Assembly: GCA_903959905.1 (NCBI GenBank)
Contig: CAJBYO010000005.1
Location: 148,674-212,673, forward strand
Reading direction: 5' to 3'
Length of the DNA stretch: 64,000 nt
DNA from: an uncultured Bacteroidales bacterium
GTDB taxonomy: Bacteria; Bacteroidota; Bacteroidia; Bacteroidales; FEN-979
Part shown: one piece after another, positions 315-43,734 of the stretch
Layout of the letters: every line of letters begins with the position of its first letter
How positions within the stretch are numbered: the first letter of the stretch is position 1
Position numbers and translations under genes: made by a program
Notes under the pieces: generated by a model
The model's database searches: none
Told to the model about the DNA's origin: nothing
Seen by the model: only the letters and a program-made list of their open reading frames with translations

Positions 315-1085
315 TTATATGTCACTTTTATCGATGTCTTTTTTATTTTGATTCTTAATGCGTTGATAACCAAAAAATTCAAGTTCCTCCAACAATTCCA
401 GGTTGCATTTCACAATGTCATTATGGCTCATTTCGTCAGGATAACGTAATAATTTTCCGGTGTTGTATTGTTTTTTTCCCTTTATTGGATTAATAGTCAG
501 AGAATTGATCACTTCCATGACAATTGAAGATTCAAATTCGATGTTAATAAAATTCGTAAACCGATTTAATTCATATACGGGATTCATTAATAAGTCATGA
601 TAGGTATAGGTTTCGCATAAACCGGACCGAACCCATTCAATTCCGGTCCTGCAAAAACCTTTTACGATGGGTATTGAGTTCTGTACTGTATCAAACTGCA
701 AAAAGAAGGTGCTCTTCGCCGGATGAAGGAGTGAACGGGTTCCATGATCAATCGCTGACAGGATCACGTCACGCGGGTCGCGGTGAATATAAGTCGCAAG
801 AATTTGTTTATTTAAAATGAGGTCTCTTATCTGATTGGTTAACGACGAATGTGTCTTTACAACAAAAGGTCCAATTTTTTTACTTAAGTCAACAAGGTTT
901 CCAAGGGTTTCCGGTGACTCAATATCATGCACAAAGATCCCGATACCATTAACTTTTCCTTCTTTGATCAATTGCTCAAATTCAGCCTGTCCATTATTGG
1001 GCATCAAACGTTTCAGAACACCTTTTTGATATAGTGATAACAGGGTCGAACCGGATTTGGGCATTCCCACACTTAGAACAAACAT
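315..1085 (-). CDS. PAPS-dependent sulfotransferase family protein
   Basis: 256-aa ORF. It has the N-terminal 5'-phosphosulfate-binding loop GMPKSGSTLL and the 3'-phosphate-binding motif YIHRDPRDVILSA, the two hallmark motifs of the sulfotransferase fold. Confidence 0.75.
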   Translation of the reverse strand: MFVLSVGMPKSGSTLLSLYQKGVLKRLMPNNGQAEFEQLIKEGKVNGIGIFVHDIESPETLGNLVDLSKKIGPFVVKTHSSLTNQIRDLILNKQILATYIHRDPRDVILSAIDHGTRSLLHPAKSTFFLQFDTVQNSIPIVKGFCRTGIEWVRSGLCETYTYHDLLMNPVYELNRFTNFINIEFESSIVMEVINSLTINPIKGKKQYNTGKLLRYPDEMSHNDIVKCNLELLEELEFFGYQRIKNQNKKDIDKSDI

Positions 1086-1148
1086 ACTTGTAAGGTTTGA
1101 TTTATTGTAATATTCAATAATGTATATTGATTAAGCGCTTTCGGACCA

Positions 1149-1380
1149 TTAAGGAAAAACAGCAGCTACAATTACCCTTTCGAACAAATCAGCATAGTTG
1201 CTCCTATTCAGTTCGTAAGCAAATTCGTTTAGATAGTTCTGTAAATAATCTGAGCTCATTTTATGTTAATTATTCGGTAATATGCATATTGACAAACTTA
1301 TGGAGATCCTGATAGTTATTTCCATGGTCGGTGAATGTTCCATCACAGGCCCACTTCTTAACGAAGAACGAAAATGACAG
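1149..1380 (-). pseudogene. Frameshifted remnant of an IS1595-family (ISXO2-like DDE) transposase C-terminus
   Basis: Minus-strand frames read ..VKKWACDGTFTDHGNNYQDLHKFVNMHITE* (1380-1270) and, in a different frame, MSSDYLQNYLNEFAYELNRSNYADLFERVIVAAVFP* (1259-1149). From memory, the latter resembles the conserved HLQxYxDEFxFRxNxR tail of IS1595 transposases. There is no intact ORF and I found no terminal inverted repeats. Confidence 0.4.
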
Positions 1381-1440
1381 GCTTTACATTCAAATTCCGC
1401 TGGTAACAGCACCAGGTAACAAAAATATTAAATAAAAACA

Positions 1441-1448
1441 TACCTTTG
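1441..1448 (+). promoter_or_regulatory. Bacteroidota-type -7 promoter box (TAnnTTTG) for the rmlC-like operon
   Basis: TACCTTTG at 1441-1448, 56 nt upstream of the ATG at 1504, in an AT-rich divergent intergenic region. Confidence 0.4.
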
Positions 1449-1503: not shown

Positions 1504-2163
1504 ATGAAAATACTTGAAGTAAAATCACTGGGGATTCCGGATGTATTCATTATCCGGTTTGGCAAGTTTCCGGATGAGCGTGGTTATTTTACCGAACCAT
1601 TCCGTCAAAGTGATTTTGATAATCATCCTGATATGTCTTTTATAAAAGGTATCAGGTTCGTGCAACAAAACGAAAGTTTTTCGAAAAAAAACGTATTAAG
1701 AGGTCTTCATCTCCAATGGAATCCTTACATGGGAAAACTGGTCAGGACCATCCATGGACATATGATTGATATTTTCTGTGATATACGTAAAGGATCTCCG
1801 ACTTTCGGTAAAGTTCTTATGTATGATATGCGAATGAGTCCGGACAGTGAATACAGTGAATGGATCTGGGTGCCTCCCGGGTTCGCCCACGGGAATCTCT
1901 TTATGCAGGAAACGACGATTGAATATTTGTGCAGTGGGGAATACAGTCAGGGCAATGAAGCCTCCATTTCTGCATTATCACCAGATTTGGATTGGAGTTT
2001 ATGCGATCCCAGGCTATCGGGATATCTTTCTTCATTGAAAGGACAGTTAATTATTGCGGAAAAAGACAGGGCGGGACTTTCTTTGGATTTTTGGACCAAT
2101 GATACAAGGTCAGATAATTTTATTTATGAAAAATTAACGAATTCGCATGTTCGATCAAAGTAA
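1504..2163 (+). CDS. rmlC: dTDP-4-dehydrorhamnose 3,5-epimerase family (RmlC-like cupin)
   Basis: 219 aa with the RmlC signature blocks FPDERGYFTEPF, NVLRGLHLQ, GKLVRTIHGHMIDIFCDIRKGSPTFGK and WVPPGFAHGN. Confidence 0.8.
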   Translation: MKILEVKSLGIPDVFIIRFGKFPDERGYFTEPFRQSDFDNHPDMSFIKGIRFVQQNESFSKKNVLRGLHLQWNPYMGKLVRTIHGHMIDIFCDIRKGSPTFGKVLMYDMRMSPDSEYSEWIWVPPGFAHGNLFMQETTIEYLCSGEYSQGNEASISALSPDLDWSLCDPRLSGYLSSLKGQLIIAEKDRAGLSLDFWTNDTRSDNFIYEKLTNSHVRSK

Positions 2164-2866
2164 AATGCTGATTACAGGAGGCAGTGGCCTCCTTGGCAGT
2201 GCCTTGAAAAGAATATTTCCGCATGCGTGCTTCCCGTCATCAACTGAATTTGATATTACGGATTATTCGCAGATGATAAATTTCCTGCAAGGGAAATCCA
2301 TCGATACTATTTTCCACGGTGCGGCCTTTATTTCTCCCCCAAGAATTGATCAGGATCCTTTCAAAGCCATTGAAGTCAATATAATAGGCACAGCCAACAT
2401 CATTCAAGTGGCACGGAAACACGAAGCCCGTGTAATTTACATCAGCACTGATTATGTTTTTAAAGGTGACCGTGGCAACTATAGGGAAGATGAACCGGTA
2501 TATCCTGTTAATAAATATGCCTGGTCAAAACTGGGTGGTGAATGTGTGGTAAGGTTATATGATAAATCACTTATCATCCGAACAACTTTCGGACCGGATG
2601 TTTTCCAATATGAAAAAGCGTTTACAGATCAATGGACCAGCAGGGAATGTGTTACAAAGATCGCGGTCATGATCTCAAAATTAATTCAACTGGAACAAAC
2701 CGGTGTTGTTCATGTAGGGGGAAAAAGAAAAAGTGTGTATGATTATGCAACCAATCTTGATCCATTGAAAGAAATAGGAAAGATCAGTATAAATGATGTT
2801 CCCTTCAATGTTCCTGTTGATACATCACTGAATACCGAATTATATGACAATCTTGTAAAGGAATAA
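2147..2866 (+). CDS. RmlD-like sugar-nucleotide reductase (short-chain dehydrogenase/reductase (SDR) family, short form)
   Basis: Rossmann motif MLITGGSGLLGSAL and an RmlD-type block ISTDYVFKGDRGNYREDEPVYPVNKYAWSKLGGE. About 50 aa shorter than canonical RmlD. The true start may be the ATG at 2165 (MLITGG..). Confidence 0.65.
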   Translation: MFDQSKMLITGGSGLLGSALKRIFPHACFPSSTEFDITDYSQMINFLQGKSIDTIFHGAAFISPPRIDQDPFKAIEVNIIGTANIIQVARKHEARVIYISTDYVFKGDRGNYREDEPVYPVNKYAWSKLGGECVVRLYDKSLIIRTTFGPDVFQYEKAFTDQWTSRECVTKIAVMISKLIQLEQTGVVHVGGKRKSVYDYATNLDPLKEIGKISINDVPFNVPVDTSLNTELYDNLVKE

Positions 2867-2885
2867 GTTCTATAACAAAAGATGA

Positions 2886-3869
2886 ATGGAGAATAATCAT
2901 AAAATCCGTATCCTGGTCGGTGGCGGTGCCGGTTACATCGGCTCTGCCCTTGTGCCGGTTCTATTGGAGCATGGTTATGATGTGACCGTGATTGATCTGT
3001 TATGGTTTGGGAATCATCTTCCGAAAGAAGTTAAGGTGATACAGAAGGATTTGTTTGACTGCAAGGCAGAAGAAATGCGTGGATATGACCAGTTTATTTT
3101 TCTTGCAGGACTTTCAAATGATCCCATGGCGGAATTGAGCCCGGCTAAGAATTTTATTTACAATGCCGCCTTACCAGCCTATCTTGCTTTTGAAGCCAAG
3201 AAGGCAGGGATCAGGCGATTCATTTATGCATCTTCCTGTTCTGTTTACGGATATACCGTTGATAAACTTTTTGACGAAGAGTCGCCTGTAACCTGTGAAT
3301 ACCCTTATGGCATTTCAAAATTACAGGGAGAAAGAGGCGTATTTCAGATCCAGGACAGTTCATTTTCGTGTATTGCGTTACGACAGGGAACGATCGTCGG
3401 GTATAGCCCGCGGATGAGATTTGATTTGATAATCAACATGATGTTCAAGTCCTGCATGATGGACGGAATAATAACCATCAACAATCCGGCTATCTGGCGG
3501 CCTGTTTTTGATATCAGGGATGCAGTTTCTGCTTATATCCGGGCGATTCAGGCAGATTATTCCATGAGTGGTGTTTTTAATGTAACCTCGGGTAATTATA
3601 CCGTAGGCCAGGTTGGGGATTTTGTCAAGCAACAGGTTGAAATGAAGACAGATATTAATATAAAACTGAATATTAAACATATCCAGGACTTCCGGAACTA
3701 TAAAGTGAATATAGAGAAAGCAAAAACACTGCTTGGATTTCAGCCGCAATTTTCAATCGTCGAAACCATAGATTATCTGTTTAAGCATTACAATGAAATT
3801 TCTGATTTTGAAAATGATAATTATTACAATATCAATATATTCAAGAAACTTTTGAATTTCCACCTGTAA
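2886..3869 (+). CDS. NAD-dependent nucleotide-sugar epimerase/dehydratase (extended SDR)
   Basis: ILVGGGAGYIGSALV Rossmann motif, ASSCSVYG, and the catalytic YxxxK in YGISKLQGE. Confidence 0.8.
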   Translation: MENNHKIRILVGGGAGYIGSALVPVLLEHGYDVTVIDLLWFGNHLPKEVKVIQKDLFDCKAEEMRGYDQFIFLAGLSNDPMAELSPAKNFIYNAALPAYLAFEAKKAGIRRFIYASSCSVYGYTVDKLFDEESPVTCEYPYGISKLQGERGVFQIQDSSFSCIALRQGTIVGYSPRMRFDLIINMMFKSCMMDGIITINNPAIWRPVFDIRDAVSAYIRAIQADYSMSGVFNVTSGNYTVGQVGDFVKQQVEMKTDINIKLNIKHIQDFRNYKVNIEKAKTLLGFQPQFSIVETIDYLFKHYNEISDFENDNYYNINIFKKLLNFHL

Positions 3870-3885: not shown

Positions 3886-4683
3886 ATGTCAAAGACACTT
3901 GTAATTATACTGAACCACAACATACCTGAATATGCAAACAGGCTTTACGATTCGCTTAAAGATTTCCAGGGAGAGACCTTTGATGTCTTTGTCATGGACA
4001 ACGGATCAAAGCCTGAACTGATGCCTGCTACCACCCATATAAGGTTTGAGCAAAACCTTTACTGGGGAGGAGCGCTGAATGAGGCATTCAAGATTGTGCT
4101 GAAGGATGATACCTATGATTCCCTGTTATTCTTAAATAATGATATAGAAGTAACCGGTGAGGTTATGGTTGACCTTCTCAGGCAGGAGTTGTTCAACAAC
4201 GATTTTGTCTTGATCCACCCTTGTGTAGCAGGCAGTCCGCAGCCCTGGAGGCAGATGCAAAATTGGGGTAGCAGGGAGACCCGGGAAGTGAAATGGATTG
4301 ATTTAATTGCCCCGCTGTTTCACCGCAAACTCATTGAACAAGTAAGGGAGTTTCCTTCCGAACTGTATTTCGGATGGGGACAGGAATTGATCATTTTTGA
4401 CATCTGCCAGGAGAAGGGATGGAAGACCGGGGTTTGCGATCATGTATGTATTCTGCATTTTGGAAAACAGACCTATATTCAACAGAAGCTGTTCATAACT
4501 GAAGAAACAGATAATGGTCTTGTGGAAAGGGCTATTCCGATCAGCGAGCGGCATGCTTTGGCTGCCATTGAATATCGCACATATTTTCAGCTGAATGTCC
4601 TTAAGCATGGTGTTTTTGACGATCTTCGGAAATACGGGGAGGAATATACCTATTATAATGCCCTGTCAGATAAAACATACTGA
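3886..4683 (+). CDS. Glycosyltransferase family 2-like
   Basis: N-terminal LVIILNHNIPEYANRLYDSL...VFVMDNGSKPE and LFLNNDIEV (DxD-like position), which is the GT-A fold pattern. Confidence 0.6.
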   Translation: MSKTLVIILNHNIPEYANRLYDSLKDFQGETFDVFVMDNGSKPELMPATTHIRFEQNLYWGGALNEAFKIVLKDDTYDSLLFLNNDIEVTGEVMVDLLRQELFNNDFVLIHPCVAGSPQPWRQMQNWGSRETREVKWIDLIAPLFHRKLIEQVREFPSELYFGWGQELIIFDICQEKGWKTGVCDHVCILHFGKQTYIQQKLFITEETDNGLVERAIPISERHALAAIEYRTYFQLNVLKHGVFDDLRKYGEEYTYYNALSDKTY

Positions 4684-4747: not shown

Positions 4748-6142
4748 TTAATCGGTAACAGGTTTTTGATTTTTACCATTGTTCTGCCGTTCATATGCTT
4801 TCATTTCAGTTGCTTGTCCATTATCCCCTTGCTGGCTCATCCATCTCATCAATTTCTTTCTTAATTGTTGGACTGTCTGAGCATTATTTGGATCACTGAT
4901 GATGTTGTGTTGTTCATACGGGTCATTGATGATGTTGTATAATTCTTCTGCGGGACGATGCTGATATCGGTTAACAATGAATTTTGCAATGGTATCCGTG
5001 TCAGCTTTTGCTATCCAGGATTTGAAGAGATTACCCCGGGTAAAAGTGCATTGAAAACTGGCTTCCGGTGTCAGGTTATAAATATAGCGAAACGTATCTG
5101 AACGGATTGTCCTGATGCCGTAATATTCAGGCCCACGGTCAATCCCTCTGGAAGTCTGGATTCCATAGGTGTAGTTCTTATGCGTTGTTTTCTCTCCTAA
5201 TAAAACAGGCAAAAAACTCTTTCCATCAAGATTGGAAGGCACTTTTCCTCTGCAAATTTCAATTAATGTCGGCGTAACATCAACATATTCAACCATTGCC
5301 TTCGTTTTTGAACCTGCCTTTACCTTTCCGGGCCACCTGACAATAAAAGCTGTTTGTAAACCATTGTCATAACATGTCCATTTTGCAAAAGGAAAATTGT
5401 TCCCATTTTCACTGGTAAATACGACAACCGTATTCTCAGTAAGATTAAATTTTTTCAGGAGTTCCAGACATTTTCCAACTTCTTCATCCATATAGATAAT
5501 CTCAGCCAGGTATTTAACAAATTTACTCCTCATCTCTTTGGAGTCAACATAGTATGGTGGTAACTGAATTTGTTTGGGATCAAATTTCAATGTATCCCCT
5601 TTGGTATGAGGAAAATGCGGCTGATGAGAACAAACAAAAAGGCAAAAAGGTTGATCCTGTCTTTTTGTTTCTGCAAGGAAATCATCCATTGCGTTGAAAT
5701 TGAGGTCATCTCCAGGATCCCCAAGGAAGTCAAAAGGAAATGACTCTGGCGGGCTTATATGTTGTTTCCCTAAAAGTGCCACCCTGTAACCAGCGGGTTT
5801 CAGATAATGAAAAATGCTTTTGGTACCAGCGTTAACATGTGAATGATTGGGATAAGCCCCGTTCCTCACCGGATATAACCCTGTATATAAACATGACCGT
5901 GCAGGGGTGCACATAGAAGTTGGCTGAAAGCAGCGCATGAATTGCATTCCTTCATTCGCCAATTTGTCAATATTGGGGGTCACGACATTGACCCCGCCGT
6001 AACTGTCCAAATCACGGAAAGTACAATCATCAGCAATAAAAAAAAGAATATTTGGCAGATTCTTTTTTATCTCATTTGTCTGGGCTAATATGCTTGAACA
6101 TAACATAATTGCCACACATTGAAACAGGAGTAACTTTTTCAC
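4748..6142 (-). CDS. Secreted formylglycine-dependent sulfatase (arylsulfatase family)
   Basis: Signal peptide MKKLLLFQCVAIMLCSSILAQ, metal-binding NILFFIADD, the sulfatase signature C-x-P-x-R in SMCTPARSCLYTG, and GKQH. Confidence 0.85.
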   Translation of the reverse strand: MKKLLLFQCVAIMLCSSILAQTNEIKKNLPNILFFIADDCTFRDLDSYGGVNVVTPNIDKLANEGMQFMRCFQPTSMCTPARSCLYTGLYPVRNGAYPNHSHVNAGTKSIFHYLKPAGYRVALLGKQHISPPESFPFDFLGDPGDDLNFNAMDDFLAETKRQDQPFCLFVCSHQPHFPHTKGDTLKFDPKQIQLPPYYVDSKEMRSKFVKYLAEIIYMDEEVGKCLELLKKFNLTENTVVVFTSENGNNFPFAKWTCYDNGLQTAFIVRWPGKVKAGSKTKAMVEYVDVTPTLIEICRGKVPSNLDGKSFLPVLLGEKTTHKNYTYGIQTSRGIDRGPEYYGIRTIRSDTFRYIYNLTPEASFQCTFTRGNLFKSWIAKADTDTIAKFIVNRYQHRPAEELYNIINDPYEQHNIISDPNNAQTVQQLRKKLMRWMSQQGDNGQATEMKAYERQNNGKNQKPVTD

Positions 6143-16242: not shown

Positions 16243-16243
16243 T

Positions 16244-35159: not shown

Positions 35160-35234
35160 GGTTAAAAATGTTTAGTGAACAATGAAAACTGAAAAGCGAA
35201 CAATTCAAGAAAACCCAAGACACACCAACCAAAA

Positions 35235-36467: not shown

Positions 36468-37251
36468 ATTTTCAATTGTCACCCCCTCTTATAACCAGGC
36501 TGGGTTTATTGAACGCACCATCCACAGTGTGGCGGATCAACAGGTTGATTTTTCCGTCGAGCATATTGTGGTTGACGGCGCCTCTACGGACGGCACACTC
36601 GATATTCTTAAACAGCATTCCGGCCGCATCCATCTTATTTCGGAACCGGATAACGGGATGCAGGATGCACTGAACAAAGGATTTTCAAAGGCTGCAGGTG
36701 AACTTGTCGGATGGCTGAACTCTGATGACATTTACCTTCCAGGGACTTTGCAGCGGGTTGCAACCTATTTTGACAGTCACCCTGATTGCCTTTGGCTTTA
36801 CGGAAATTGCCGCATGATCGATGAGCAGGACAGGGAGGTAAGGAAATGGATAACGGCTTACAAGAACCGGTCGGCAAGGAAATACAGGTATGAAAAGCTT
36901 TTGGTTGAGAACTTCATCTCACAGCCTGCGGTGTTTATGCGAAGGGAAGCCCTCGTAAAAGCCGGCCCCATTGATACGGGGCTCCCCACCGCCATGGATT
37001 ATGATTTATGGATCAGGCTGGCAAAACTGGGCAGGCCGGGATATATTGATGATGATCTGGCGTGTTTCAGGGTGCATGGGGAGTCAATCAGTTCAAGGAG
37101 TTATCGGGAGCAATTTGACGAGCAATACCGCATCCATCAGAAGTATGACCATAACCGGAGGAGGCTGTTAATGCACCGGGTCAACAATTTTATCATTGTA
37201 CTTACCTATTCAGTCATAAAAAAAATACAGGCTGTTTTCGGAAAAGATTGA
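36451..37251 (+). CDS. Glycosyltransferase family 2
   Basis: KFSIVTPSYNQAGFIERTIHSVADQ..EHIVVDGASTDGT and NSDDIY. Confidence 0.8.
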   Translation: MERTCKFSIVTPSYNQAGFIERTIHSVADQQVDFSVEHIVVDGASTDGTLDILKQHSGRIHLISEPDNGMQDALNKGFSKAAGELVGWLNSDDIYLPGTLQRVATYFDSHPDCLWLYGNCRMIDEQDREVRKWITAYKNRSARKYRYEKLLVENFISQPAVFMRREALVKAGPIDTGLPTAMDYDLWIRLAKLGRPGYIDDDLACFRVHGESISSRSYREQFDEQYRIHQKYDHNRRRLLMHRVNNFIIVLTYSVIKKIQAVFGKD

Positions 37252-37392: not shown

Positions 37393-39270
37393 ATGCATAA
37401 AAATCAAAAGAAGAAGGCCCCTGTGGTTCAGCATCCCAAAGGGGTACAGAAGAAATCTCCTGCAAAAAATGAATCTCTTCTGAAAATTCTGCAACCGTTA
37501 CTGGTTATCCTCCCCATCGTATTTATCGCATTTTTCCCGATTTTAAACAATGACCTCACCAACTGGGATGATCCCGACCTGATCATTGACAACCCGCTGA
37601 TCAGGGATTTCAGCTGGCACGGCGTCAAGGTCCTTTTCTCTTCGTTCTATTTCGGCAACTATCAGCCATTGCATTTGCTAGCATATATGTTGCAATTTCA
37701 AATGTGGGGGCTTAATCCCGCAGGATACCATGCTGTGAGCCTGGTACTTTTCCTGATTACCACATGCCTTGTGTATTACTTCATTTTTCAGATCAGTTCG
37801 AAAAACAAGACCATTGCAATCATTGCCACCCTGCTTTTTGCCATTAATGCCATGCGTGTTGAATCTGTAGCCTGGGCGGCAGAGCACAAAGACATGCTCT
37901 ACGCTGTATTTTATATGGCATCCCTTATTGCCTATGTGAAATACGTTATCGCGTTGAAGGAGCATGGTAAAGGTTTTATCCTGAAATATTTCATCTACGC
38001 ATTTCTCTTTTTCATTCTTTCCGTGTTTTCAAAAGTCATGGCAGTTTCCATCGTGGGGCCCATGATCATGTTAGACTATTTTTATAAAAGGAAACTCAGC
38101 ATCCGGCTGATCCTTGAAAAAATTCCGTTTGTGGTGTTAAGTGTCACCATCGGGTTGATCCAGGTTGATGCAACCGCCTCTGCAGGCACTATTGATAAAA
38201 GCAACCTCTTTACCTTGTTTGACCGCGTATTGATCGTTTGCAGGAACCTGATGTTTTTCGTGTATAAAAGTCTTGTTCCCGTTAACTTGTCAGCCTTTTA
38301 TCCCTATCCGAAAACAACCCCGGCAGAGTCGTGGCCTATTGAATTTTATATTGCGCCCGTCTTTGGGCTTGTCCTGCTGGTTCTTTTTATCTGGTCGGTC
38401 AGGAAATCTCCCGTAATAGCCTTCAGCATCGGATTCTTCTTTGCCGCCCTGGCCCTTGTCCTGCAGTTCGTTGCCATCGGACCTGCCATGTTCAATGAAC
38501 GGTATTCACTGATCCCTTCTGTGGCTCTTTCTTTTGCACTGGCCACAGGGATATGGTACCTGGTGAGCAAATATCCCGGGCAGAAATATATCATTTTCGG
38601 GGGTACCGGATTTTATCTTTTAGTCATGTTTTATCTCACCTTTACCCGGTGTGATGTATGGCAAACCAGCATCACACTGTGGGACGACGCCCTGGAGCAG
38701 TTCCCGCATGCATCCATGCCGCTGAACAACAGGGGAAAATTTTACGGAAAAGATCTGGGTAACACCACGAAGGCGATCGTTGACCTCAACAATGCCATCA
38801 GGTATAACAAGGGATTTGAACAGCCATACAGTAACCGTGGAATTATTTTCTGCATGAACGGGAAATTTGATTCAGCCATTTCCGATTTCAACAATGCCAT
38901 CCGGATCAAAAGCGATTATTACGAAGCAATTTCAAACCGTGCCATTGCCTATTCCCAAACGAACCGGCCGGCCCTGGCCCTTGAAGACTTCACGAGGTGT
39001 CTTACCCTCCAGCCCAACAAACCCGACATGTATCTTAACCGCGGATATTGCTATCTTCAGCTTAATCAGCCGGATAAAGCGCTGGATGATTTTAATGCAG
39101 GGTTGAAACTGAGCCCGGGAAACCCCGATTTTTACCTTCGGAGATCACAGGCTTATTTTACGCTGAAGAAATATGGTGAGGCATACTCGGATGTTGAAGC
39201 GGCAAGGAAGGCAGGCATTAAAGTCAATGATGCATATTTCAACCAGTTGAAACAAGCAGCAGGCCAGTAG
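37393..39270 (+). CDS. TMTC-like GT-C membrane glycosyltransferase with C-terminal TPR repeats
   Basis: N-terminal ~430 aa is polytopic, with the first-loop acidic motif LTNWDDPDLIIDNPLIRD. The C-terminal ~190 aa holds 5-6 TPR units (..AISDFNNAIRIKSDYYEAISNRA.., ..ALDDFNAGLKLSPGNPDFYLRRS..). This is the same architecture as eukaryotic TMTC O-mannosyltransferases and bacterial DUF1736 proteins. Confidence 0.65.
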   Translation: MHKNQKKKAPVVQHPKGVQKKSPAKNESLLKILQPLLVILPIVFIAFFPILNNDLTNWDDPDLIIDNPLIRDFSWHGVKVLFSSFYFGNYQPLHLLAYMLQFQMWGLNPAGYHAVSLVLFLITTCLVYYFIFQISSKNKTIAIIATLLFAINAMRVESVAWAAEHKDMLYAVFYMASLIAYVKYVIALKEHGKGFILKYFIYAFLFFILSVFSKVMAVSIVGPMIMLDYFYKRKLSIRLILEKIPFVVLSVTIGLIQVDATASAGTIDKSNLFTLFDRVLIVCRNLMFFVYKSLVPVNLSAFYPYPKTTPAESWPIEFYIAPVFGLVLLVLFIWSVRKSPVIAFSIGFFFAALALVLQFVAIGPAMFNERYSLIPSVALSFALATGIWYLVSKYPGQKYIIFGGTGFYLLVMFYLTFTRCDVWQTSITLWDDALEQFPHASMPLNNRGKFYGKDLGNTTKAIVDLNNAIRYNKGFEQPYSNRGIIFCMNGKFDSAISDFNNAIRIKSDYYEAISNRAIAYSQTNRPALALEDFTRCLTLQPNKPDMYLNRGYCYLQLNQPDKALDDFNAGLKLSPGNPDFYLRRSQAYFTLKKYGEAYSDVEAARKAGIKVNDAYFNQLKQAAGQ

Positions 39271-39288: not shown

Positions 39289-40692
39289 TCAGATAAACTT
39301 TATTTTCCGGGCAGCAAACATGCTCATTTTAACCAGCAGCCACCCATGTTTAAACCGGCTGATCTGGGTTGAACCGTATTCCCGGTCGCGGTACCGGATG
39401 ATGATCTCTGTCATCTTCAGGTTTAATTTGGCAGCACCGAACAGCAGGTCAAAATCACCAAACGGGTCAAAATCACCAAAGTAATGGCGGTTGTTCTGAA
39501 TGGCGGTGTAATCTTTTTTAAACAGGACCTTGGTGCCGCACAGTGTATCTTTTAACCGTTGCCCGAGAAGGTAGGTAAAGAACATTCCGAAAAACTTGTT
39601 GGCCAGAAAGTTAAGAAATCGCATGGCATCTTTATCCATCGGATACACCAGCCTGCACCCGTTGATGAATTCACCCTTGTTCTGCGACAGGGCACGGTAG
39701 AATTTTTCCAGTTCCTCAGGCGGCATGGTGAGGTCGGCATCCAGGATCATGAGGATGTCGCCGGTGGCTGCGTCAAACCCGGCCCTTACCGCATCACCCT
39801 TCCCTTTGCCGGTTTGTACCATCACCCTGATATTCTTTTCCGGGTAGGCTGCCTGTACCCTGAGCATCTCTTCATGGGTGTTGTCTGCAGAATGGCCCTC
39901 AACAAAAATAAACTCCTGCGACAGTCCGAATGCGGGAGTCCTAAGGATGGCGTTTTCAATGTTGCCCCGTTCATTCCTGGCTGGAACGACGATACTGACG
40001 GAATGTTCTACCTCCTGCGTGTAGGCAGGCCGTGCTACCAGGATGTTTACCAGGTCAAGTTTATTCAGCAGGGGTAAATTGGCAAGAAACCGGTTGAAAA
40101 TAAAATTTAAACCCGGGATATACTTAGGAAGGAGCAATTTATGCTGGACGGTAATGACCTGGAATCCTTCTAGTTCAAGCAACGTGTCAATATCTGCTGT
40201 TGACAGCCAGTTTTGTTTGGGCTGGGGCAGCTTAAGATGAAGGGTTTCTCCAAGGTTCATGATCCCTTCCCAGAGGTAGTTGTAATTGGAGATGACCACC
40301 CTTGTCTGGGGATGGCAGAGCTGACGGATATTGTTCAGTACTTTCTGAACATCCCACAGGCAACCGGCGAGATCGGATAAGATGATGTAATCAAATGTTT
40401 CATCCAGTTTTAACGCTTCCGCATCCTGAACATGAAAGTGCAGACCGGGATATTTCACCCTGGCCTGATCAATGATGGCGGGAGCAAAATCAACCCCTAC
40501 CCCATATGCGGGTTTTACCGATGCCAGAAGGTCGCCAAGGCCGCATCCCACCTCCAGCACCCTGCTGTTTTCAGCAACGATAAATGAAAAGTACTTTTGC
40601 AGGGAATTATGGTAGAACCAGTTTCTTCTTTTCCATTTTGCCCGCGAACCGGATGTATTGTTGTAAAAATCCCTGATCTCTTCTTTTTTCAT
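39289..40692 (-). CDS. Bifunctional SAM-methyltransferase / GT2 (DPM1-like) fusion protein
   Basis: Likely start MKKEEIRDF at 40692, 11 nt after the upstream stop. MT motif I VLEVGCGLGDLL. GT2 half has VSIVVPARNERGNIENAI..FVEGHSADNT and ILDADLT. Confidence 0.75.
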   Translation of the reverse strand: MKKEEIRDFYNNTSGSRAKWKRRNWFYHNSLQKYFSFIVAENSRVLEVGCGLGDLLASVKPAYGVGVDFAPAIIDQARVKYPGLHFHVQDAEALKLDETFDYIILSDLAGCLWDVQKVLNNIRQLCHPQTRVVISNYNYLWEGIMNLGETLHLKLPQPKQNWLSTADIDTLLELEGFQVITVQHKLLLPKYIPGLNFIFNRFLANLPLLNKLDLVNILVARPAYTQEVEHSVSIVVPARNERGNIENAILRTPAFGLSQEFIFVEGHSADNTHEEMLRVQAAYPEKNIRVMVQTGKGKGDAVRAGFDAATGDILMILDADLTMPPEELEKFYRALSQNKGEFINGCRLVYPMDKDAMRFLNFLANKFFGMFFTYLLGQRLKDTLCGTKVLFKKDYTAIQNNRHYFGDFDPFGDFDLLFGAAKLNLKMTEIIIRYRDREYGSTQISRFKHGWLLVKMSMFAARKIKFI

Positions 40693-40703
40693 GGAGGAAG
40701 ACG

Positions 40704-41585
40704 TTACTTTTGGTTCCTCCGGATCAGGGAGAGTTGTTCCGTGATAAGTCCCAAAAGGAAAAAAAGGAGGGTGGATACGATCCCCAGCAGTGTTCCGGAA
40801 CTTACACCCCGTCCTTCCAGGGCCAGCGGTATCCCCCAGGTCATGGTAACGATAAAACACACTGTTGCCAGGGGCAGGAAAATTTTCATGGGGTTGAAGA
40901 GAATCACGATATGGATGATCTCCATAACGGTTTGAAAGGCAGTTTGAAGGCCGATGGTACTTTTGCCGGTTTTGCGTTCCTTGATGCTGATCGGTTCCTC
41001 AAGCACGAGATGACGGTTGTTGATGAAAACAAGGGTAATCACATCGCTGAACGACATCGTGTCGGTTGTTAAATAGAGGTATCTTTTTGCGAGGTCGGTT
41101 CTGTAAATCTTCATTCCTGAGTTAATATCATGAACCGGAACCGTCATCATGATTTTTGCAATCAGCCGTATCATCCATTTTCCGATGTTCCTGTAATGGG
41201 AACTTGCCTTCAGTCCTTTGCGTGAACCAACAACCATATCCGCATCATGTGCAATAAGGCAGGCACTCAGTTTTTCAATATCTTCGATGTAATGCTGGCC
41301 ATCCGCATCGAATGTGATCAGGTATTCCGTTTCACAGGCGCGGATGCCCGACTTAATGGCTGCACCGTAGCCACTGTTCAGTTTATGGTGTATAACTGTT
41401 AAAAGAGGCTCTTCCTTGTAGGTTTTCAGGTACTCCTTCGTCCCGTCGAGGGACCCGTCGTTGACCAGGATGATCTTCCAATTGTTTTCCCGGCAGTAGG
41501 CGATCAGCGGCGGCAGAAATACCTCCAGGTTCTCAGCCTCGTTGAATGCAGGAATAATAACTGTTAACTGGATTTCGGAGTTCAT
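40704..41585 (-). CDS. GtrB/DPM1-like GT2 with two C-terminal TM helices (polyprenyl-phosphate sugar synthase-like)
   Basis: LTVIIPAFNEAENLEVFLPPL..ILVNDGSLDGT, TFDADGQH, NSGMKIY; C-terminal hydrophobic pair. Confidence 0.75.
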   Translation of the reverse strand: MNSEIQLTVIIPAFNEAENLEVFLPPLIAYCRENNWKIILVNDGSLDGTKEYLKTYKEEPLLTVIHHKLNSGYGAAIKSGIRACETEYLITFDADGQHYIEDIEKLSACLIAHDADMVVGSRKGLKASSHYRNIGKWMIRLIAKIMMTVPVHDINSGMKIYRTDLAKRYLYLTTDTMSFSDVITLVFINNRHLVLEEPISIKERKTGKSTIGLQTAFQTVMEIIHIVILFNPMKIFLPLATVCFIVTMTWGIPLALEGRGVSSGTLLGIVSTLLFFLLGLITEQLSLIRRNQK

Positions 41586-41595
41586 TTGACCGGGA

Positions 41596-43734
41596 TCAGA
41601 TATTATAATAGCGAATCAGGGTGATGTATACGGAATAAACCAGTGTTAGGATACAAAACAAGGTAATAAAAAGGTAAAGTGCCTTATTGAAAAGCTGCTC
41701 ATTCTCCACGATTTCCTGCAGAATGACCGGTTTTCCCCTGGCTTTTGCATTGTTGAATTCTTTTCGGCGGATACTGAAAAGAATGTTCAGTTTCGGATTG
41801 ATATACCCGTTGTAAAACAGCATGAAAATCAGGGGGGCCATCGGAATGAAGTACCGACCCTGGACCCCGAAAACCTGGTCGCGACCGGGGCGGGTGGCAT
41901 AAACAAACATGGCAGTGTGTATGATGAAATACGCTACTGCAAGCAAAAACAGCAGCAGTCCTTTTTTTGTCCACCCAAGGCTGACCCGGGTGCCATGCAG
42001 CGTAAATGCGGCAAAAAGCAACAGGAACAAATATGAATATGTGAGCATTGACGGGAGTTCCACATCTATCCATCCAAGGAGCCCGACAAAACTGTCGAGG
42101 ATATACAAGCCATTTTTGACAAAACCACTTTTAACAATAAGGGCGATATACCCCGGAAAATCGTTGGTGATGGTTCTGATCTGTTCATCGGGCCTGAAAA
42201 GTTGTGCGGTGGCGGTTGCACCTGTGTCGGGCAGGGCGAACTGTGTCGGGGCTTTGGATGAGGAAAGATAATTAACAGCAACTGGTCCGGCTTTGAATAC
42301 TGCCAGCAGAAGTACCACCGCACCAACTGAAATCATGATATACCTGTAAAGTTTCCCGAATTTCCGCGGAGGGATAAAAAAGAAAAGAAGGCCCAGGATA
42401 AAATACGGGGGTTTGCACAACAGGAGCAACAACACCAGAAGTGCAATGATTGCAAGGTCTTTGATGCCCAGATCCCTTTCACAAGCCCATGCGTAGTAAA
42501 AGAATACGGCGATGGTGATGAAAGAAAGGCTGACTGTGAGGCTGTCGTAAGAAAGAGATCCGAACAGGAAAAGTGTTTTTGGCATCAGGGCCAGCAGCAG
42601 GAATAACCATTTAAACTCCGGGATGATCCGGATGGCAAAGAACATGATAATAATGGATATCAGCAGGTTGAAAATTCGGCCAAGGTACATCAGTACCAGC
42701 GGTGACGAATTAAACAGCTTCCCCAGCATGATACCCAGCGCCTGTGGCAGATAAGGCAGGGTATAGGCCGGCGGTGTAATAGTGGCTCTCTTTGCAGGTT
42801 CAAGCCTTGTTCCAAGGTGTTTTTTTATCTCCGCCATGCTGGTTTTTTCTCCGGCTGAAAAGTGCAGGTCCTGGAAGGCCGAATCAAGCATTAAGATTGA
42901 TACAGGGCCTGTTTTCTCCTGGCTGAATATGCGGAACTCGGATATCTCAAAGGAACGCTGGAAGTGGCTGCCTTCATCGGGAACCTGCAGTGGAGGCGTG
43001 ATGAAGGTGAATATCATGGAAACAGGAACGGCAATGGCAAGAAAGATCCATTCGGGGCGGATTGAGATGCGCGCCAGGGCTGCCTTTATCTGGCTGTACC
43101 AGATGATTAGGCAGGCAATAATTGTCCCGAGGAGGTAGAGAAACACTTTCATGAGCCAGAACTGGCTGTTGTCGGTCTCATACGTTCTGATCATCAGGCT
43201 TCCGCTGAAGACCTGTGTCCTGGTTTTTACTGATCCGATCAGGTCATTATCAATGACTTTTGATACGTACAGTGCGCCAATTGAATCTGTTTTATTGACC
43301 AGGAGTGAGGCCGTGTTATCTGCGGTGCCGTCGTTGGAGAAAACAGAGATGTAAACGTGTTTTCCTTTTCCGACAAATACCGATTTGTCAAAAAGGAAGG
43401 GCGTCATATCTCCTTCTTTTACATCAGCGGAGGAGAAGGTTCTTTTCCAAACAGTCTGGTAGTCGGCATTGAGCAGCAGAATGGTATTTTCATTTGTATT
43501 GTTTCTGCCGTTGTGGGTAAATATTACTTCAACTCCGCTTATGTAGTCTTTTGTTGCAGTGAACTCCTGGGTGACGATCAGCCCCTTGATGAGGCCTCCG
43601 AGGATGCCTGCTGTGCGTGACTGAGTTGACCGGGTGGGTGTTGTTGAAGCCTGGTTTATCCGGATCAGGGTAATGACAACAACGGCCAGTATGAAAAACA
43701 GAACACCGGCAATTGTCCTGGTATTTTGACTCAT
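41596..43734 (-). CDS. DUF2142-like polytopic membrane protein (putative GT-C glycosyltransferase) with an extra N-terminal extracytoplasmic domain
   Basis: 712 aa. One N-terminal TM, then a ~170-aa beta-rich domain, then a polytopic region beginning TPPLQVPDEGSHFQRSFEIS (the PDE..H motif I associate with DUF2142). Confidence 0.5.
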   Translation of the reverse strand: MSQNTRTIAGVLFFILAVVVITLIRINQASTTPTRSTQSRTAGILGGLIKGLIVTQEFTATKDYISGVEVIFTHNGRNNTNENTILLLNADYQTVWKRTFSSADVKEGDMTPFLFDKSVFVGKGKHVYISVFSNDGTADNTASLLVNKTDSIGALYVSKVIDNDLIGSVKTRTQVFSGSLMIRTYETDNSQFWLMKVFLYLLGTIIACLIIWYSQIKAALARISIRPEWIFLAIAVPVSMIFTFITPPLQVPDEGSHFQRSFEISEFRIFSQEKTGPVSILMLDSAFQDLHFSAGEKTSMAEIKKHLGTRLEPAKRATITPPAYTLPYLPQALGIMLGKLFNSSPLVLMYLGRIFNLLISIIIMFFAIRIIPEFKWLFLLLALMPKTLFLFGSLSYDSLTVSLSFITIAVFFYYAWACERDLGIKDLAIIALLVLLLLLCKPPYFILGLLFFFIPPRKFGKLYRYIMISVGAVVLLLAVFKAGPVAVNYLSSSKAPTQFALPDTGATATAQLFRPDEQIRTITNDFPGYIALIVKSGFVKNGLYILDSFVGLLGWIDVELPSMLTYSYLFLLLFAAFTLHGTRVSLGWTKKGLLLFLLAVAYFIIHTAMFVYATRPGRDQVFGVQGRYFIPMAPLIFMLFYNGYINPKLNILFSIRRKEFNNAKARGKPVILQEIVENEQLFNKALYLFITLFCILTLVYSVYITLIRYYNI

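Follow-up and report, generated by a model that had tools for sequence, protein, structure and literature searches.

Two probably distinct, abutting glycan clusters and a neighbouring Wzm/Wzt exporter at a many-module glycan locus of an uncultured Bacteroidales bacterium

The window, i.e., the whole stretch of 64,000 nucleotides analysed, contains 33 consecutive open reading frames at 315-43734, all of which encode glycan-related or membrane proteins; both the coordinates and the run of about 30 sugar genes in the original prediction were upheld. Housekeeping genes follow from 44.4 kb on (GldD, T9SS carboxypeptidase, CorA, DAHP synthase, AsnRS, RecJ, PFK and KdtA). At about 30-31 kb the GC content changes from 0.39-0.42 to 0.46-0.49. 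Because the GC content differs and the two parts are distributed independently, we consider it quite probable that the region consists of two abutting glycan clusters, and is not the single exporter-less super-locus that had been proposed:

about -5.7 kb (Wzm) to about 32 kb: cluster A, an O-antigen-type locus of low GC that depends on Wzm/Wzt and contains a hypervariable insert
about 32.3-43.7 kb: cluster B, of genome-typical GC and adjoining gldD; relatives have cluster B without cluster A

Wzm and Wzt are encoded on the same contig, 3.4-5.7 kb to the left of window position 1, and over 11,085 bases this contig and the window have identical sequence. Wzm was detected by Pfam ABC2_membrane (48 bits), while Wzt combines ABC_tran with a Wzt_C carbohydrate-binding domain (58.6 bits versus a cut-off of 30.4). 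Both genes are kept at the same place in relatives, including one of 61% identity. The reported lack of an ABC exporter is thus an artefact of the window edge, and the view that the locus departs from a classical ABC capsule pathway does not hold. Inspection of the flanks revealed export genes in this form but, as predicted for Wzx, Wzy and the initiating phosphoglycosyltransferase, none of these three, nor Wza/Wzc, turned up between -10 kb and +64 kb; a WaaL-type ligase and an outer-membrane export component were likewise not found within the 74 kb examined. An initiating phosphoglycosyltransferase is normally missing from ABC-dependent O-antigen loci, e.g., those relying on WecA encoded elsewhere. 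Two further sulfotransferases and the remainder of TM541 also lie left of the window. The full TM541 gene (L001, 10992-12617) encodes about 10 TM segments with 'YYDELHQ' in the first loop, and a co-linear, sub-threshold PMT_2 match (E value 0.0028) suggests a probable sixth GT-C-like protein.

The strain-specific extras reside in a low-GC hypervariable insert that separates Wzt from the TPR-WbsX core; they comprise sulfotransferases, a sulfatase, Rml-like genes, a UGM-like/TM1101 module, TM558 and a carbamoyltransferase. The genes from the left edge of the window to the end of the insert are as follows (aa, amino acids; E values in parentheses):

1-94, minus strand: first 31 codons of TM541, a 541-aa polytopic membrane protein, running past the left window edge
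315-1085, minus: sulfotransferase (Pfam Sulfotransfer_1, 3e-10), one of three, the other two left of the window
1504-3869, plus: nucleotide-sugar modification genes for an RmlC-like epimerase, a short RmlD-like reductase and an NAD-dependent epimerase/dehydratase (Pfam dTDP_sugar_isom, 1.7e-40; RmlD_sub_bind, 1.6e-29; Epimerase, 1.8e-27)
3886-4683, plus: soluble GT2 of 265 aa (Pfam Glycos_transf_2, 7e-07), kept in L004
4748-6142, minus: sulfatase-family protein (Pfam Sulfatase, 1.2e-37; SGSH_C, 8.5e-22) with an N-terminal TM segment, residues 4-22
6419-7573, plus: GT2 (Pfam GT2, residues 281-368) with an extra N-terminal region of 280 aa; it opens the conserved four-gene TM1101 module
7689-10994, plus: TM1101, 1101 aa, with about 17 TM helices and, C-terminal to them, a periplasmic beta-sandwich (CBM-like) region of ~400 aa
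10994-12199, plus: UDP-galactopyranose-mutase-like (UGM-like) flavoenzyme (PDB phmmer against Aspergillus fumigatus UGM, 1.5e-29, residues 6-308; Pfam NAD_binding_8, Amino_oxidase)
12196-12882, plus: small soluble polyprenyl-/dolichyl-phosphate-hexose-synthase-like GT2 without a TM segment (NCBIfam AglJ, 2.7e-18; Dol-P-hexose transferase, 1.4e-08; both below cut-off)
12976-14652, minus: TM558, Agl23-like, 9 TM, GDE in the first loop at residue 54 (NCBIfam TIGR03663 (Agl23), 1.7e-11, residues 32-215, below cut-off)
14707-15669, minus: GT2/Glyco_transf_7C glycosyltransferase (Pfam), kept in L004
15663-17539, minus: two membrane proteins adjoining the carbamoyltransferase, of 122 aa (2 TM segments) and 431 aa
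17539-19410, minus: O-carbamoyltransferase (Pfam Carbam_trans_N, 4.5e-95; Carbam_trans_C, 2.8e-73)
19918-21519, minus: GT2 with a C-terminal coiled-coil-like extension (Pfam GT2, 3.7e-25; weak coiled-coil family match, residues 317-418)

The predicted carbamoylation and sulfation genes, and the sulfatase, were confirmed by Pfam. The sulfatase-family protein has an N-terminal hydrophobic segment and is therefore probably exported. The 431-aa protein consists of three N-terminal TM segments and a soluble domain containing GCSFTFG ... FDAHPN; neither it nor its 122-aa neighbour has a significant family match (weak SxtJ, E value 0.019) or a PDB match. The GT2 with the coiled-coil-like extension, kept in L003 and L004 and partly in L061, is possibly a chain-length or terminating component.

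TM1101 had been counted among five GT-C-like enzymes, but no sequence or fold link to GT-C was detected (hhalign probability at most 20%). It has no sequence match in Pfam, NCBIfam or PDB, and Foldseek aligned only the C-terminal part of its model, to CBM22/SGBP-like domains, with no match for the TM part (model pLDDT 63). Its family is large (at least 1,792 representative clusters at E<=1e-3) and has no description in the family and structure libraries that were searched. Conserved residues include D59, R63, E251, H356, R604, R608, H609 and E613. L003 and L004 likewise have the GT2 of 6419-7573 immediately 5' of their TM1101 homologue, and the UGM-like flavoenzyme adjoins TM1101 also in L004 and L007. 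A synthase-like GT2 is found beside TM1101 in six of seven long-subfamily loci, with six phylum- or class-level lineages represented. This gene context makes TM1101 a candidate polyprenyl-phosphate-sugar-dependent transferase, and its periplasmic CBM-like domains parallel those of GT136 ORF12, the Emb proteins and AftD (PMC11127046).

The right part of cluster A comprises the polymer-synthesis core and a set of membrane-associated functions:

21833-27712, plus: TPR protein (203 aa), WbsX, GT4-GT2 two-domain enzyme (861 aa) and second WbsX (Pfam)
27816-29711, plus: TM631, predicted GT-C-fold membrane glycosyltransferase (AlphaFold model, pLDDT 81, pTM 0.83)
29764-30702, plus: GT2_312, GtrB/ArnC-type GT2 (NCBIfam AglJ, 6.3e-31; PpgS, 5.7e-19; ArnC, 1e-08) with C-terminal TM segments at 232-250 and 269-287
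30723-31376, plus: SAM-dependent methyltransferase (Pfam Methyltransf_25/11/23), also following GT2_312 in L061 and L062
31387-32301, plus: UPF0104-like membrane protein with 6 or more TM segments (Pfam LPG_synthase_TM, 0.011, sub-threshold), weakly similar to the MprF flippase domain

The order of the core recurs after Wzm/Wzt in L061 (65-77% identity), where one compact run reads Wzm-Wzt-TPR-WbsX-GT4GT2-WbsX-TM631-GT2_312-methyltransferase. From TPR to methyltransferase its genes share 57-82% identity, the highest value being that of GT2_312; for its Wzt the identity is 32%, and only Pfam detected its Wzm. L062 represents a minimal form with Wzm-Wzt, one large glycosyltransferase, TM631 and GT2_312, the last two being paired beside the exporter in both loci. 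The Foldseek search against PDB supports a GT-C fold for the modelled TM631, as its top 11 matches are all GT-C, i.e., AftA (8if8; E value 2e-05, TM 0.50), ArnT, STT3, PglB and AftD, while a 12-sequence alignment gave no invariant acidic residue in the first loop. GT2_312 is a candidate polyprenyl-phosphate-sugar synthase. In L008, a homologue of the UPF0104-like protein (E value 6e-24) follows a GT2_312-like gene beside a TM1101 homologue. The UPF0104 'flippase-like' call originally given to this protein depends on the weak LPG_synthase_TM match; the protein is a candidate flippase for a lipid-linked sugar. Family searches of the window's ORFs detected no GtrA/SMR- or MATE-type flippase.

Cluster B is found beside SSB-GldD-CorA in L059, with no Wzm/Wzt nearby, and L060 has only its TM-TPR and MT-GT2 pair:

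32322-37251, plus: 361-aa protein, two GT2s, GT4 and a further GT2 (Pfam; the glycosyltransferases cytoplasmic), syntenic in L059 at 42-68% identity
37393-39270, plus: TM-TPR, with an 11-TM PMT/TMTC-like putative GT-C domain and C-terminal TPR repeats; W58-D59-D60 invariant
39289-40692, minus: MT-GT2, methyltransferase-GT2 fusion (Pfam), the GT2 half synthase-like (NCBIfam AglJ, 3.3e-25; ArnC, 4.1e-13)
40704-41585, minus: GT2_293, GtrB/ArnC-type GT2 (NCBIfam PpgS, 5.9e-24; ArnC, 1.8e-17), C-terminal TM segments at 227-245 and 264-282, paired with the DUF2142 protein
41596-43734, minus: DUF2142 polytopic membrane protein (Pfam DUF2142, 4.4e-57, 194 bits versus a cut-off of 30), PDE at 252

The TM-TPR family is Bacteroidota-wide, with more than 2,258 homologues; PMT_2 matched two of 12 members (E value 5.8e-10) and PMT also two of 12, and hhalign against the TM631 family gave a probability of 57% (E value 1e-04). 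The invariant WDD, the TPRs and these matches in relatives support its assignment as a GT-C enzyme. The Pfam match likewise supports a GT-C type for the DUF2142 protein, the type also of the lactococcal WpsI/WpsJ (PMC9746298, PMC12599335).

All five large proteins are indeed polytopic (about 7-17 hydrophobic segments each), and the predicted GDE, WDD and PDE motifs were confirmed. At most four would be GT-C-like, i.e., TM631, the DUF2142 protein, TM-TPR and, weakly, TM558. The four GT2s described as DPM1/GtrB-like do have polyprenyl-/dolichyl-phosphate-sugar synthase models (AglJ, PpgS, ArnC, Dol-P-hexose transferase) as their best NCBIfam matches, all below curated cut-offs, and two C-terminal TM helices in the GtrB/ArnC style occur only in GT2_312 and GT2_293; the remaining GT2s match WcaA/WcaE/TuaG-type models instead. 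Each of the synthase-like GT2s has a large membrane protein as its neighbour. Three of these pairs are also present in other genomes: TM631 with GT2_312 (L061, L062), the DUF2142 protein with GT2_293 (L059, L061), and TM-TPR with MT-GT2 (L059 and L060, 72-79% identity).

Taken at the level of sequence, the genes are consistent with a pathway that we favour with fair confidence, in which cytoplasmic polymerisation is followed by ABC export and several periplasmic glycosylation modules. In cluster A, the polymer would be built on undecaprenyl diphosphate by the GT4-GT2 enzyme, the two WbsX proteins, the coiled-coil GT2 and others, and probably capped or decorated with methyl, sulfate and/or carbamoyl groups. 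Wzm/Wzt would export it, the Wzt_C domain recognising the chain end, and the exported glycan would be glycosylated further on the periplasmic face: a GT2 would make a polyprenyl-phosphate-sugar, a flippase (the UPF0104-like protein and/or TM558) would carry it across the membrane, and a GT-C-type enzyme (TM631, probably also TM1101 and TM541) would add the sugar. Cluster B would contribute cytoplasmic glycosyltransferases and two more synthase/GT-C pairs. Substrates throughout, the order of steps, the flippases and the acceptor, whether an LPS-linked glycan or protein, are those we infer.

The partial Agl23 match of TM558 weakly supports a GT-C-type transferase, but the protein may instead be a lipid-linked-sugar flippase; Agl23 is reported to be a hexose-phosphate-dolichol flippase (PMC11182771). 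Instead of transferring side-chain sugars, some of the GT-C-like proteins could act as ligases or polymerases. The original idea that much of the chemistry takes place on the periplasmic face, with GtrB/DPM1-like GT2s supplying GT-C enzymes, fits the pairing, the recurrence of three pairs and the TM631 fold. Three or more such modules in one locus, combined with sulfation and carbamoylation, had been put forward as an arrangement not known to be described; loci with several modules of a synthase and a GT-C-type polytopic membrane protein together with an ABC exporter are known in streptococci and lactococci, and the three-component principle is known for Gram-negative O antigens (PMC9746298, PMC11127046). 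The locus thus represents a known pathway with many modules; it is not a new one lacking an exporter.

The ABC exporter of the glycan locus is encoded directly to the left of the window. A look-up of the first gene (315-1085) retrieved L001, a contig which extends leftwards and matches the window at each of the 11,085 bases that the two share. Beyond window position 1, in leftward order, it encodes TM541, two sulfotransferases, Wzt, Wzm, two unknown proteins and T9SS cargo proteins. The features of this flank, together with the membrane proteins and family 2 glycosyltransferases (GT2s) of the window to which repeated reference is made, are as follows.

L001 15897-16808: Wzm; Pfam ABC2_membrane, 48 bits against a cut-off of 26.9
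L001 14475-15869: Wzt; ABC_tran and Wzt_C domains; TagH model E value 1e-73, Wzt model E value 1.8e-52
Window 1-94, continuing to L001 10992-12617, minus strand: TM541; 541 aa, of which the first 31 codons are in the window (94-1), about 10 TM segments; sub-threshold PMT_2 match, E value 0.0028
Window 6419-7573: GT2_384
Window 7689-10994: TM1101, membrane protein of 1101 aa
Window 12196-12882: GT2_228, synthase-like
Window 12976-14652: TM558, membrane protein
Window 27816-29711: TM631, membrane protein
Window 29764-30702: GT2_312, synthase-like
Window 37393-39270: TM-TPR, membrane protein with TPRs
Window 39289-40692: MT-GT2, methyltransferase-GT2 fusion, synthase-like
Window 40704-41585: GT2_293, synthase-like
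Window 41596-43734: DUF2142 protein, membrane protein

The Wzt_C domain of Wzt spans residues 313-445 (E value 8.7e-16; 58.6 bits against a cut-off of 30.4). On the same contig as the window, the two exporter genes occupy a stretch 3.4-5.7 kb beyond its left end, and in three other genomes (L003, L061 and L062) they are likewise found in synteny with the locus core. The locus thus starts about 5.7 kb to the left of the window and depends on an ABC transporter; with Wzm and Wzt encoded among its glycosyltransferases it is, judged by gene content, of the ABC-dependent O-antigen type. The original prediction had seen no ABC exporter and had proposed an exporter-less pathway, which, as written, is contradicted by the Wzm and Wzt genes on L001, canonical export genes immediately beyond the window edge. 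The presence of Wzt_C implies that the polymer would carry a recognised terminal group, and methyl-, sulfo- and carbamoyl-transferases detected in the locus with Pfam would be available as chain-end modifiers for such recognition. The absence of Wzx/Wzy and of an initiating phosphoglycosyltransferase was predicted correctly: Pfam scans from -10 kb to +64 kb found no initiating phosphoglycosyltransferase, WaaL/Wzy_C, Wzx or Wza/Wzc, and no match to Bac_transf, Glycos_transf_4 or Wzy_C. For ABC-dependent O antigens the initiating enzyme is commonly encoded elsewhere, as often is the ligase, so that their absence here is compatible with an ABC-dependent pathway.

Inside the window, the ORF listing and Pfam scans confirmed the predicted coordinates and revealed 33 glycan-related genes that follow one another without a break between 315 and 43734. 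For the start of MT-GT2, the predicted 40692 agrees better with the gene calls in relatives (467 aa) than does the longest ORF (40860). Housekeeping genes occupy the sequence from 44.4 kb on (GldD, a T9SS-tailed carboxypeptidase, CorA, DAHP synthase, AsnRS, RecJ, PFK, KdtA and peptidases), and by its GldD and Por_Secre_tail domains the window belongs to the Bacteroidota. Exact-match look-ups found the window proteins only in metagenome assemblies and in MAGs labelled 'Bacteroidota bacterium', and tRNA and Rfam scans of the window gave no match. The glycan region is bracketed by T9SS cargo genes (Por_Secre_tail; L001 16969-20771 and window 45097-47517) and gldD. Between the DUF2142 gene and gldD, 43949-44380 on the plus strand is probably an SSB gene, a 143-aa SSB (PF00436) being encoded at the same position in a relative (L059); if so, the ORF that overlaps it on the minus strand (43919-44458) is likely spurious.

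This run had been taken for one super-locus. It is instead made up of two units which differ in GC content and are independently distributed among other genomes (L059-L062), namely cluster A, the ABC-dependent O-antigen-type locus from about -5.7 kb to about 32 kb, and cluster B, at 32.3-43.7 kb beside gldD. As far as about 30 kb the sequence has a GC content of 0.36-0.44; beyond about 31 kb it reaches 0.46-0.49, the value of the housekeeping flank. The step, from about 0.41 to about 0.48 at about 30000-31000, coincides with the junction of the ABC-dependent locus and the gldD-side cluster. In L061, the compact run Wzm-Wzt(Wzt_C)-TPR-WbsX-GT4GT2-WbsX-TM631-GT2_312-methyltransferase, with 57-82% identity for the TPR-to-methyltransferase genes, is followed by part of the right-hand cluster, while L062 represents a minimal form with Wzm-Wzt, one 1053-aa multi-domain glycosyltransferase, TM631 and GT2_312. 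In the closest species representative (L003/L004; TM1101 identity 61%), Wzm-Wzt is followed by a different variable segment, which retains GT2_384-TM1101-UGM-like-GT2_228, and then by a GT2-coiled-coil-TPR-WbsX-GT4GT2 core. In cluster A the variable part is a hypervariable insert of low GC content, located between Wzt and the TPR-WbsX core. L059 carries the cluster B genes (p361, the 361-aa protein that starts the cluster, GT2s, GT4, GT2, TM-TPR, MT-GT2, GT2_293 and DUF2142) beside SSB-GldD-CorA with 42-79% identity; it is without Wzm/Wzt and has a Bac_transf gene and YjbH-like genes on its other side. In L060 only the convergent TM-TPR and MT-GT2 pair is conserved, alone among housekeeping genes. 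The GC step and the comparative contexts together show clusters A and B to be distinct units which happen to adjoin one another here.

Five membrane proteins had been predicted to be GT-C-like. TM631 has no Pfam match of its own, and one homologue carries DUF6311. Its AlphaFold model, built from a 12-sequence alignment (pLDDT 81, pTM 0.83), had GT-C enzymes as all 11 of its best Foldseek matches in the PDB, i.e., AftA (E value 2e-05, TM 0.50), ArnT, yeast and human STT3, PglB, AftD and ALG9, and a GT-C fold is thereby supported at the level of the model. No invariant acidic residue was found in its first loop in the 12-sequence alignment. The product of 41596-43734 matches Pfam DUF2142 (E value 4.4e-57; 194 bits against a cut-off of 30) and has PDE at residue 252 in the single sequence; DUF2142 proteins are treated as polytopic GT-C-type enzymes in the lactococcal and streptococcal literature (PMC9746298, PMC12599335). 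TM558 has GDE at residue 54, again in a single sequence, and a partial NCBIfam match to TIGR03663/Agl23 (E value 1.7e-11; 44 bits against a cut-off of 126). The prediction thus stands for TM631 by its fold, for the DUF2142 protein by Pfam and for TM-TPR through its relatives, but the match of TM558 is sub-threshold and TM1101 is without a GT-C match. TM541, flanked by three sulfotransferase genes, contains the first-loop motif YYDELHQ, with DE at 34 in the single sequence. PDB sequence searches with single proteins and with profiles A1, A2, A3 and A5 gave no GT-C link for any membrane protein, the only matches being to TPRs for 37393-39270, and among the membrane-protein families hhalign linked only TM631 and TM-TPR (57% probability, E value 1e-04).

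TM1101 and 40 diverse relatives had no match in Pfam, NCBIfam or the PDB by sequence; a consistent GT-C family match was found in none of the 40, and hhalign comparison with GT-C families was not significant (at most 20% probability). An exhaustive profile search revealed 1,792 clusters at 50% identity with E values up to 1e-3, and 844 with E values up to 1e-30. An apparent rarity of the family (8 matches) in a word-indexed search was rejected as an artefact of sensitivity; the same search gave 12 matches for TM631. The family occurs in 53 species representatives, mostly Bacteroidota (Brumimicrobium, Crocinitomicaceae, Saprospiraceae and Chitinophagaceae), with outliers in Spirochaetota, Vulcanimicrobiota, Thermoanaerobaculia, Gammaproteobacteria and Binatia. 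Conserved residues include D59 (in at least 90% of members), R63, E251 (invariant), P348, H356, R604, R608, H609 and E613; the motif R-x3-R-H is invariant, and a soluble domain is also conserved. The AlphaFold model, from a shallow 9-sequence alignment, was poor (pLDDT 63), and its Foldseek matches were confined to CBM-like beta-sandwiches (CBM22, SGBP-B) in the C-terminal 400 or so residues. GT-C enzymes with periplasmic CBMs are known, e.g., the GT136 enzyme ORF12, EmbA-C and AftD (PMC11127046). A synthase-like GT2 is encoded directly beside the TM1101 homologue or within 2.5 kb in six of the seven long-subfamily loci (L004-L010), and in L006/L058 genes for DUF2142, GT2_TM_C and DUF2304 proteins follow it. 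L058 (the context of P0006) is another multi-module locus of synthases and membrane proteins, with a 29%-identical TM1101 homologue amid GT2, GT2 plus GT2_TM_C, DUF2142, GT2 and DUF2304. A short subfamily of about 950 aa is without one beta-sandwich domain; in the one locus examined (L057) a Glyco_transf_9 gene of LPS-core type adjoins the TM1101 homologue. A neighbourhood fixed across the whole family was rejected, since the short subfamily is found in unrelated or LPS-core-like contexts. The gene context provides the best evidence on TM1101, for which a function of GT-C type is plausible; it may found a new family of polyprenyl-phosphate-sugar-dependent GT-C-type transferases.

Four GT2s had been predicted to resemble polyprenyl-P-sugar synthases. 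Their best NCBIfam matches are indeed the AglJ, PpgS, ArnC and Dol-P-hexose transferase models, the other GT2s matching WcaA/WcaE/TuaG types. However, all of the synthase scores fall below the curated cut-offs, which indicates resemblance and not equivalog membership, and a C-terminal TM hairpin is present in only two of the four (29764-30702 and 40704-41585). Each is encoded beside a polytopic protein, in the pairs TM631/GT2_312, DUF2142/GT2_293, TM-TPR/MT-GT2 and TM1101 (with TM558)/GT2_228, the first three of which recur in other genomes. This context, in which every candidate adjoins a synthase-like GT2, would fit a GT-C-type use of polyprenyl-phosphate-sugar donors at the outer face of the membrane.

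No flippase of the GtrA/SMR or MATE type was found with Pfam among all ORFs of at least 120 aa in the window, and two proteins are candidates in their place. The product of 31387-32301, described earlier as a UPF0104 flippase-like protein, retains that description at a sub-threshold level, having a weak co-linear match to LPG_synthase_TM (E value 0.011); in L008, a Thermoanaerobaculia MAG, one homologue of it comes after a GT2_312-like gene, with a TM1101 homologue alongside. The other candidate is the Agl23-like TM558, whose gene is tail-to-tail with GT2_228. Agl23 has been reported to be a hexose-P-dolichol flippase and moves lipid-linked glycans across in vitro (PMC11182771). Because TM558 lies beside a synthase-like GT2, it may be the flippase of the GT2_228 module and not a transferase.

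The same module includes a UGM-like flavoprotein (10994-12199), which is much more similar to the eukaryotic enzymes (Aspergillus, E value 1.5e-29; Trypanosoma, 2.4e-21) than to bacterial UGMs (E value 1e-06 or weaker) and travels with TM1101 in L004 and L007. Its product could supply a furanose to a cytoplasmic glycosyltransferase or, more speculatively, to a lipid-linked donor; given that this neighbour is conserved, TM1101 may add a furanose from a lipid-linked donor. Further to the right (15663-19410 region, minus strand), a carbamoyltransferase is followed by two unassigned membrane proteins. One, of 122 aa, has a weak SxtJ match (E value 0.019), while the other, of 431 aa, has three TM segments at its N terminus; its soluble domain contains GCSFTFG ... 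FDAHPN, which recalls motifs of the SGNH type. None of the fetched relatives contained the trio. A sulfatase (Sulfatase and SGSH_C; 4748-6142, minus strand), probably exported, is encoded inside the biosynthetic locus together with three sulfotransferases and could perform periplasmic sulfate editing; the fetched relatives contain no homologue of it.

Taken together, the genes comprise a Wzm/Wzt exporter with a CBM, many predicted cytoplasmic glycosyltransferases including a two-domain 861-aa enzyme, and the four synthase-like GT2s with their polytopic partners, one membrane protein having a GT-C fold and three more having family-level support. We propose that the polymer would be assembled on undecaprenyl diphosphate in the cytoplasm, terminated or decorated (for which the methyl-, sulfo- and carbamoyl-transferases are available) and exported by Wzm/Wzt, after which GT-C-type enzymes would glycosylate it in the periplasm with Und-P-sugars as donors. 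The target of cluster B may be this polymer, the LPS core or proteins. It is highly improbable that the whole is one exporter-less super-locus, in which GT-C enzymes build the glycan from polyprenyl-P-sugars, essentially at the periplasmic side of the membrane, and no Wzx/Wzy or ABC pathway takes part. Although 315-43734 contains no Wzx, Wzy, Wza/Wzc or ABC gene and the locus abounds in GT-C-like and synthase-like genes, Wzm/Wzt with Wzt_C lie 3.4-5.7 kb further left in a position syntenic with the core in three other genomes, some 14 cytoplasmic glycosyltransferase genes imply assembly in the cytoplasm, and the region splits into two units of independent distribution. We also consider it unlikely that any of the large membrane proteins is a ligase or polymerase which moves the whole exported chain to lipid A-core (WaaL-like), to another polymer (WpsJ-like) or to proteins. 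Such a role would fit the lack of a WaaL/Wzy_C-type ligase in 74 kb, the place of TM631, which in L061 and L062 always comes immediately after the core of polymer-synthesis genes, the proposals that lactococcal DUF2142 proteins are a polymerase (WpsI) or a chain transferase (WpsJ) (PMC12599335), the invariant R-x3-R-H of the TM1101 family and the GT9 gene of LPS-core type beside its short-subfamily member. However, TM631, the DUF2142 protein, TM-TPR and TM1101 are each paired with a GT2 resembling polyprenyl-monophosphate-sugar synthases, a partner for which a ligase of Und-PP-linked chains would have no need, and the best Foldseek matches of TM631 are GT-C enzymes which transfer mono- or oligosaccharides, WaaL being absent from them.

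The remaining alternative concerns cluster B, or at least TM-TPR and MT-GT2, which might serve TMTC/PMT-like protein O-glycosylation and merely abut the O-antigen-type locus. TM-TPR has 11 TM segments and TPR_1/TPR_2 matches (Pfam E values 1e-22 to 1e-25), and W58-D59-D60 in its first loop is invariant in the family; an acidic first-loop motif in a GT-C-like domain combined with TPRs gives it, by sequence, a TMTC/PMT-type architecture. TM-TPR itself has no significant PMT match in Pfam and no PDB sequence match outside the TPRs, while two of 12 diverse relatives match PMT_2 (5.8e-10) and two match PMT; the name 'protein O-mannosyl-transferase' given to some relatives derives from automatic JGI annotations. 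More than 2,258 homologues, nearly all of them from Bacteroidota, make up a family that spans the phylum and whose members often stand alone among housekeeping genes. In L063, a Chitinophagales MAG, the homologue adjoins a TMEM260_2-like gene, which we take to represent another O-mannosyltransferase-type family. According to a 2025 review, the O-glycosylation transferase and core machinery of Bacteroidota are undiscovered and resemble eukaryotic O-mannosylation (PMC12871550), and our literature search found no characterised bacterial TMTC-like enzyme in this phylum. Against such a role, the TPRs could bind partners other than a protein acceptor, the current model of the O-glycosylation characterised in Bacteroides, Tannerella, Porphyromonas and Flavobacterium is en-bloc transfer from Und-PP (PMC12871550), and TM-TPR and MT-GT2 are adjacent only in closer relatives (L059 and L060), the idea of a constant pairing failing in L063 and the other relatives at 40-49% identity. 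We regard a separate O-glycosylation function as rather unlikely, and the more specific proposal, that TM-TPR with its MT-GT2 partner is the initiating protein O-glycosyl(mannosyl)transferase of general O-glycosylation in Bacteroidota, as doubtful.

An ABC-dependent pathway followed by periplasmic glycosylation has close parallels: its logic equals that of known ABC-exported O-antigen systems (PMC11127046) and of multi-module rhamnan loci (PMC9746298, PMC9574508, PMC8035078). Three-component systems acting on O antigens include Gtr of Salmonella and Shigella and that of Citrobacter youngae O1/O2, which employs the GT136 enzyme ORF12 (Kelly et al. 2024, PMC11127046). There, as proposed here, a polymer of cytoplasmic origin is exported, and a donor made by a dedicated synthase is flipped and its sugar added by a GT-C enzyme; ORF12, a GT-C with an extra periplasmic CBM, parallels TM1101, and Wzm/Wzt with Wzt_C are present here. 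In contrast to the single module of those systems, the present locus has four synthase-like GT2s and five to six GT-C-like proteins, MprF-flippase-like and Agl23-like candidates in place of a GtrA/SMR or MATE flippase, a TM1101 candidate outside the described GT families, a Bacteroidota host, and sulfo-, carbamoyl- and methyl-transferases. The rhamnose-rich wall loci of streptococci and lactococci (RgpCD; GacI/GacL; CsdA/CsdB/CflA; PMC9746298, PMC9574508, PMC8035078) likewise combine an ABC exporter, several pairs of GT2 and GT-C/DUF2142 proteins, multi-domain glycosyltransferases and a bipartite conserved/variable organisation. They direct the synthesis of peptidoglycan-linked wall polymers in Gram-positive bacteria, whereas the present host is a diderm with LPS genes (KdtA); the backbone enzymes are RgpA/B/F there and WbsX plus GT4-GT2 here, and no sequence relationship was detected beyond the family level.

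Other likenesses concern single modules. In the mycobacterial arabinan pathway (EmbA/B/C and AftA-D, which use decaprenyl-phospho-arabinofuranose) a single polymer is likewise the substrate of several GT-C enzymes; TM631 has its closest structural match in AftA, Emb and AftD bear CBMs as TM1101 does, and the TM1101 module includes a furanose-forming UGM-like enzyme. Here, however, the donor would start from GT2 synthases and UDP-sugars rather than from enzymes of the PRPP/UbiA type. Pfam scans of the window revealed neither DprE1/E2 nor a UbiA-like gene, and no sequence similarity to the arabinan GT-C enzymes was detected. With archaeal Agl22/Agl23 of Haloarcula hispanica (PMC11182771) the locus shares the matches of GT2_228 to the haloarchaeal Dol-P-hexose transferase and AglJ models and that of its convergent neighbour TM558 to Agl23, but these are partial and below cut-off, the host is bacterial, the carrier is presumably undecaprenyl phosphate, and TM558 keeps a GT-C-like GDE. 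TM-TPR resembles eukaryotic TMTC1-4/PMT (PMC7801869) in its N-terminal polytopic domain with a WDD first loop, followed by TPRs, and in the PMT and PMT_2 matches of its relatives; it differs in being itself without a PMT or PDB sequence match and in being paired, in close relatives, with a methyltransferase-GT2 fusion.

The pathway logic, ABC export and then periplasmic glycosylation from lipid-phosphate sugars, is an established one, and the locus defines no new assembly route. What distinguishes the locus from known systems is the number of modules, the lack of a canonical small flippase, the absence of the TM1101 family from the libraries searched, the Bacteroidota host, and sulfation with carbamoylation. 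It is unusual for a Bacteroidota genome to have four donor synthases grouped with five or six GT-C-like proteins around one exporter, next to genes for sulfation, carbamoylation and methylation, and from this combination an unusually decorated, probably anionic surface glycan is predicted. To our knowledge, O-antigen biosynthesis in Bacteroidota is less studied than that of Enterobacteria or Gram-positive cocci. In the TM-TPR family, which occurs across the phylum, there is a concrete candidate for the transferase, as yet undiscovered, of general protein O-glycosylation (PMC12871550). The TM1101 family, membrane proteins of about 950-1100 aa found mostly in Bacteroidota and unannotated in the libraries searched, merits study by structural and genetic means: lipid-sugar synthases are repeatedly encoded next to it, which makes a role as a glycosyltransferase testable.
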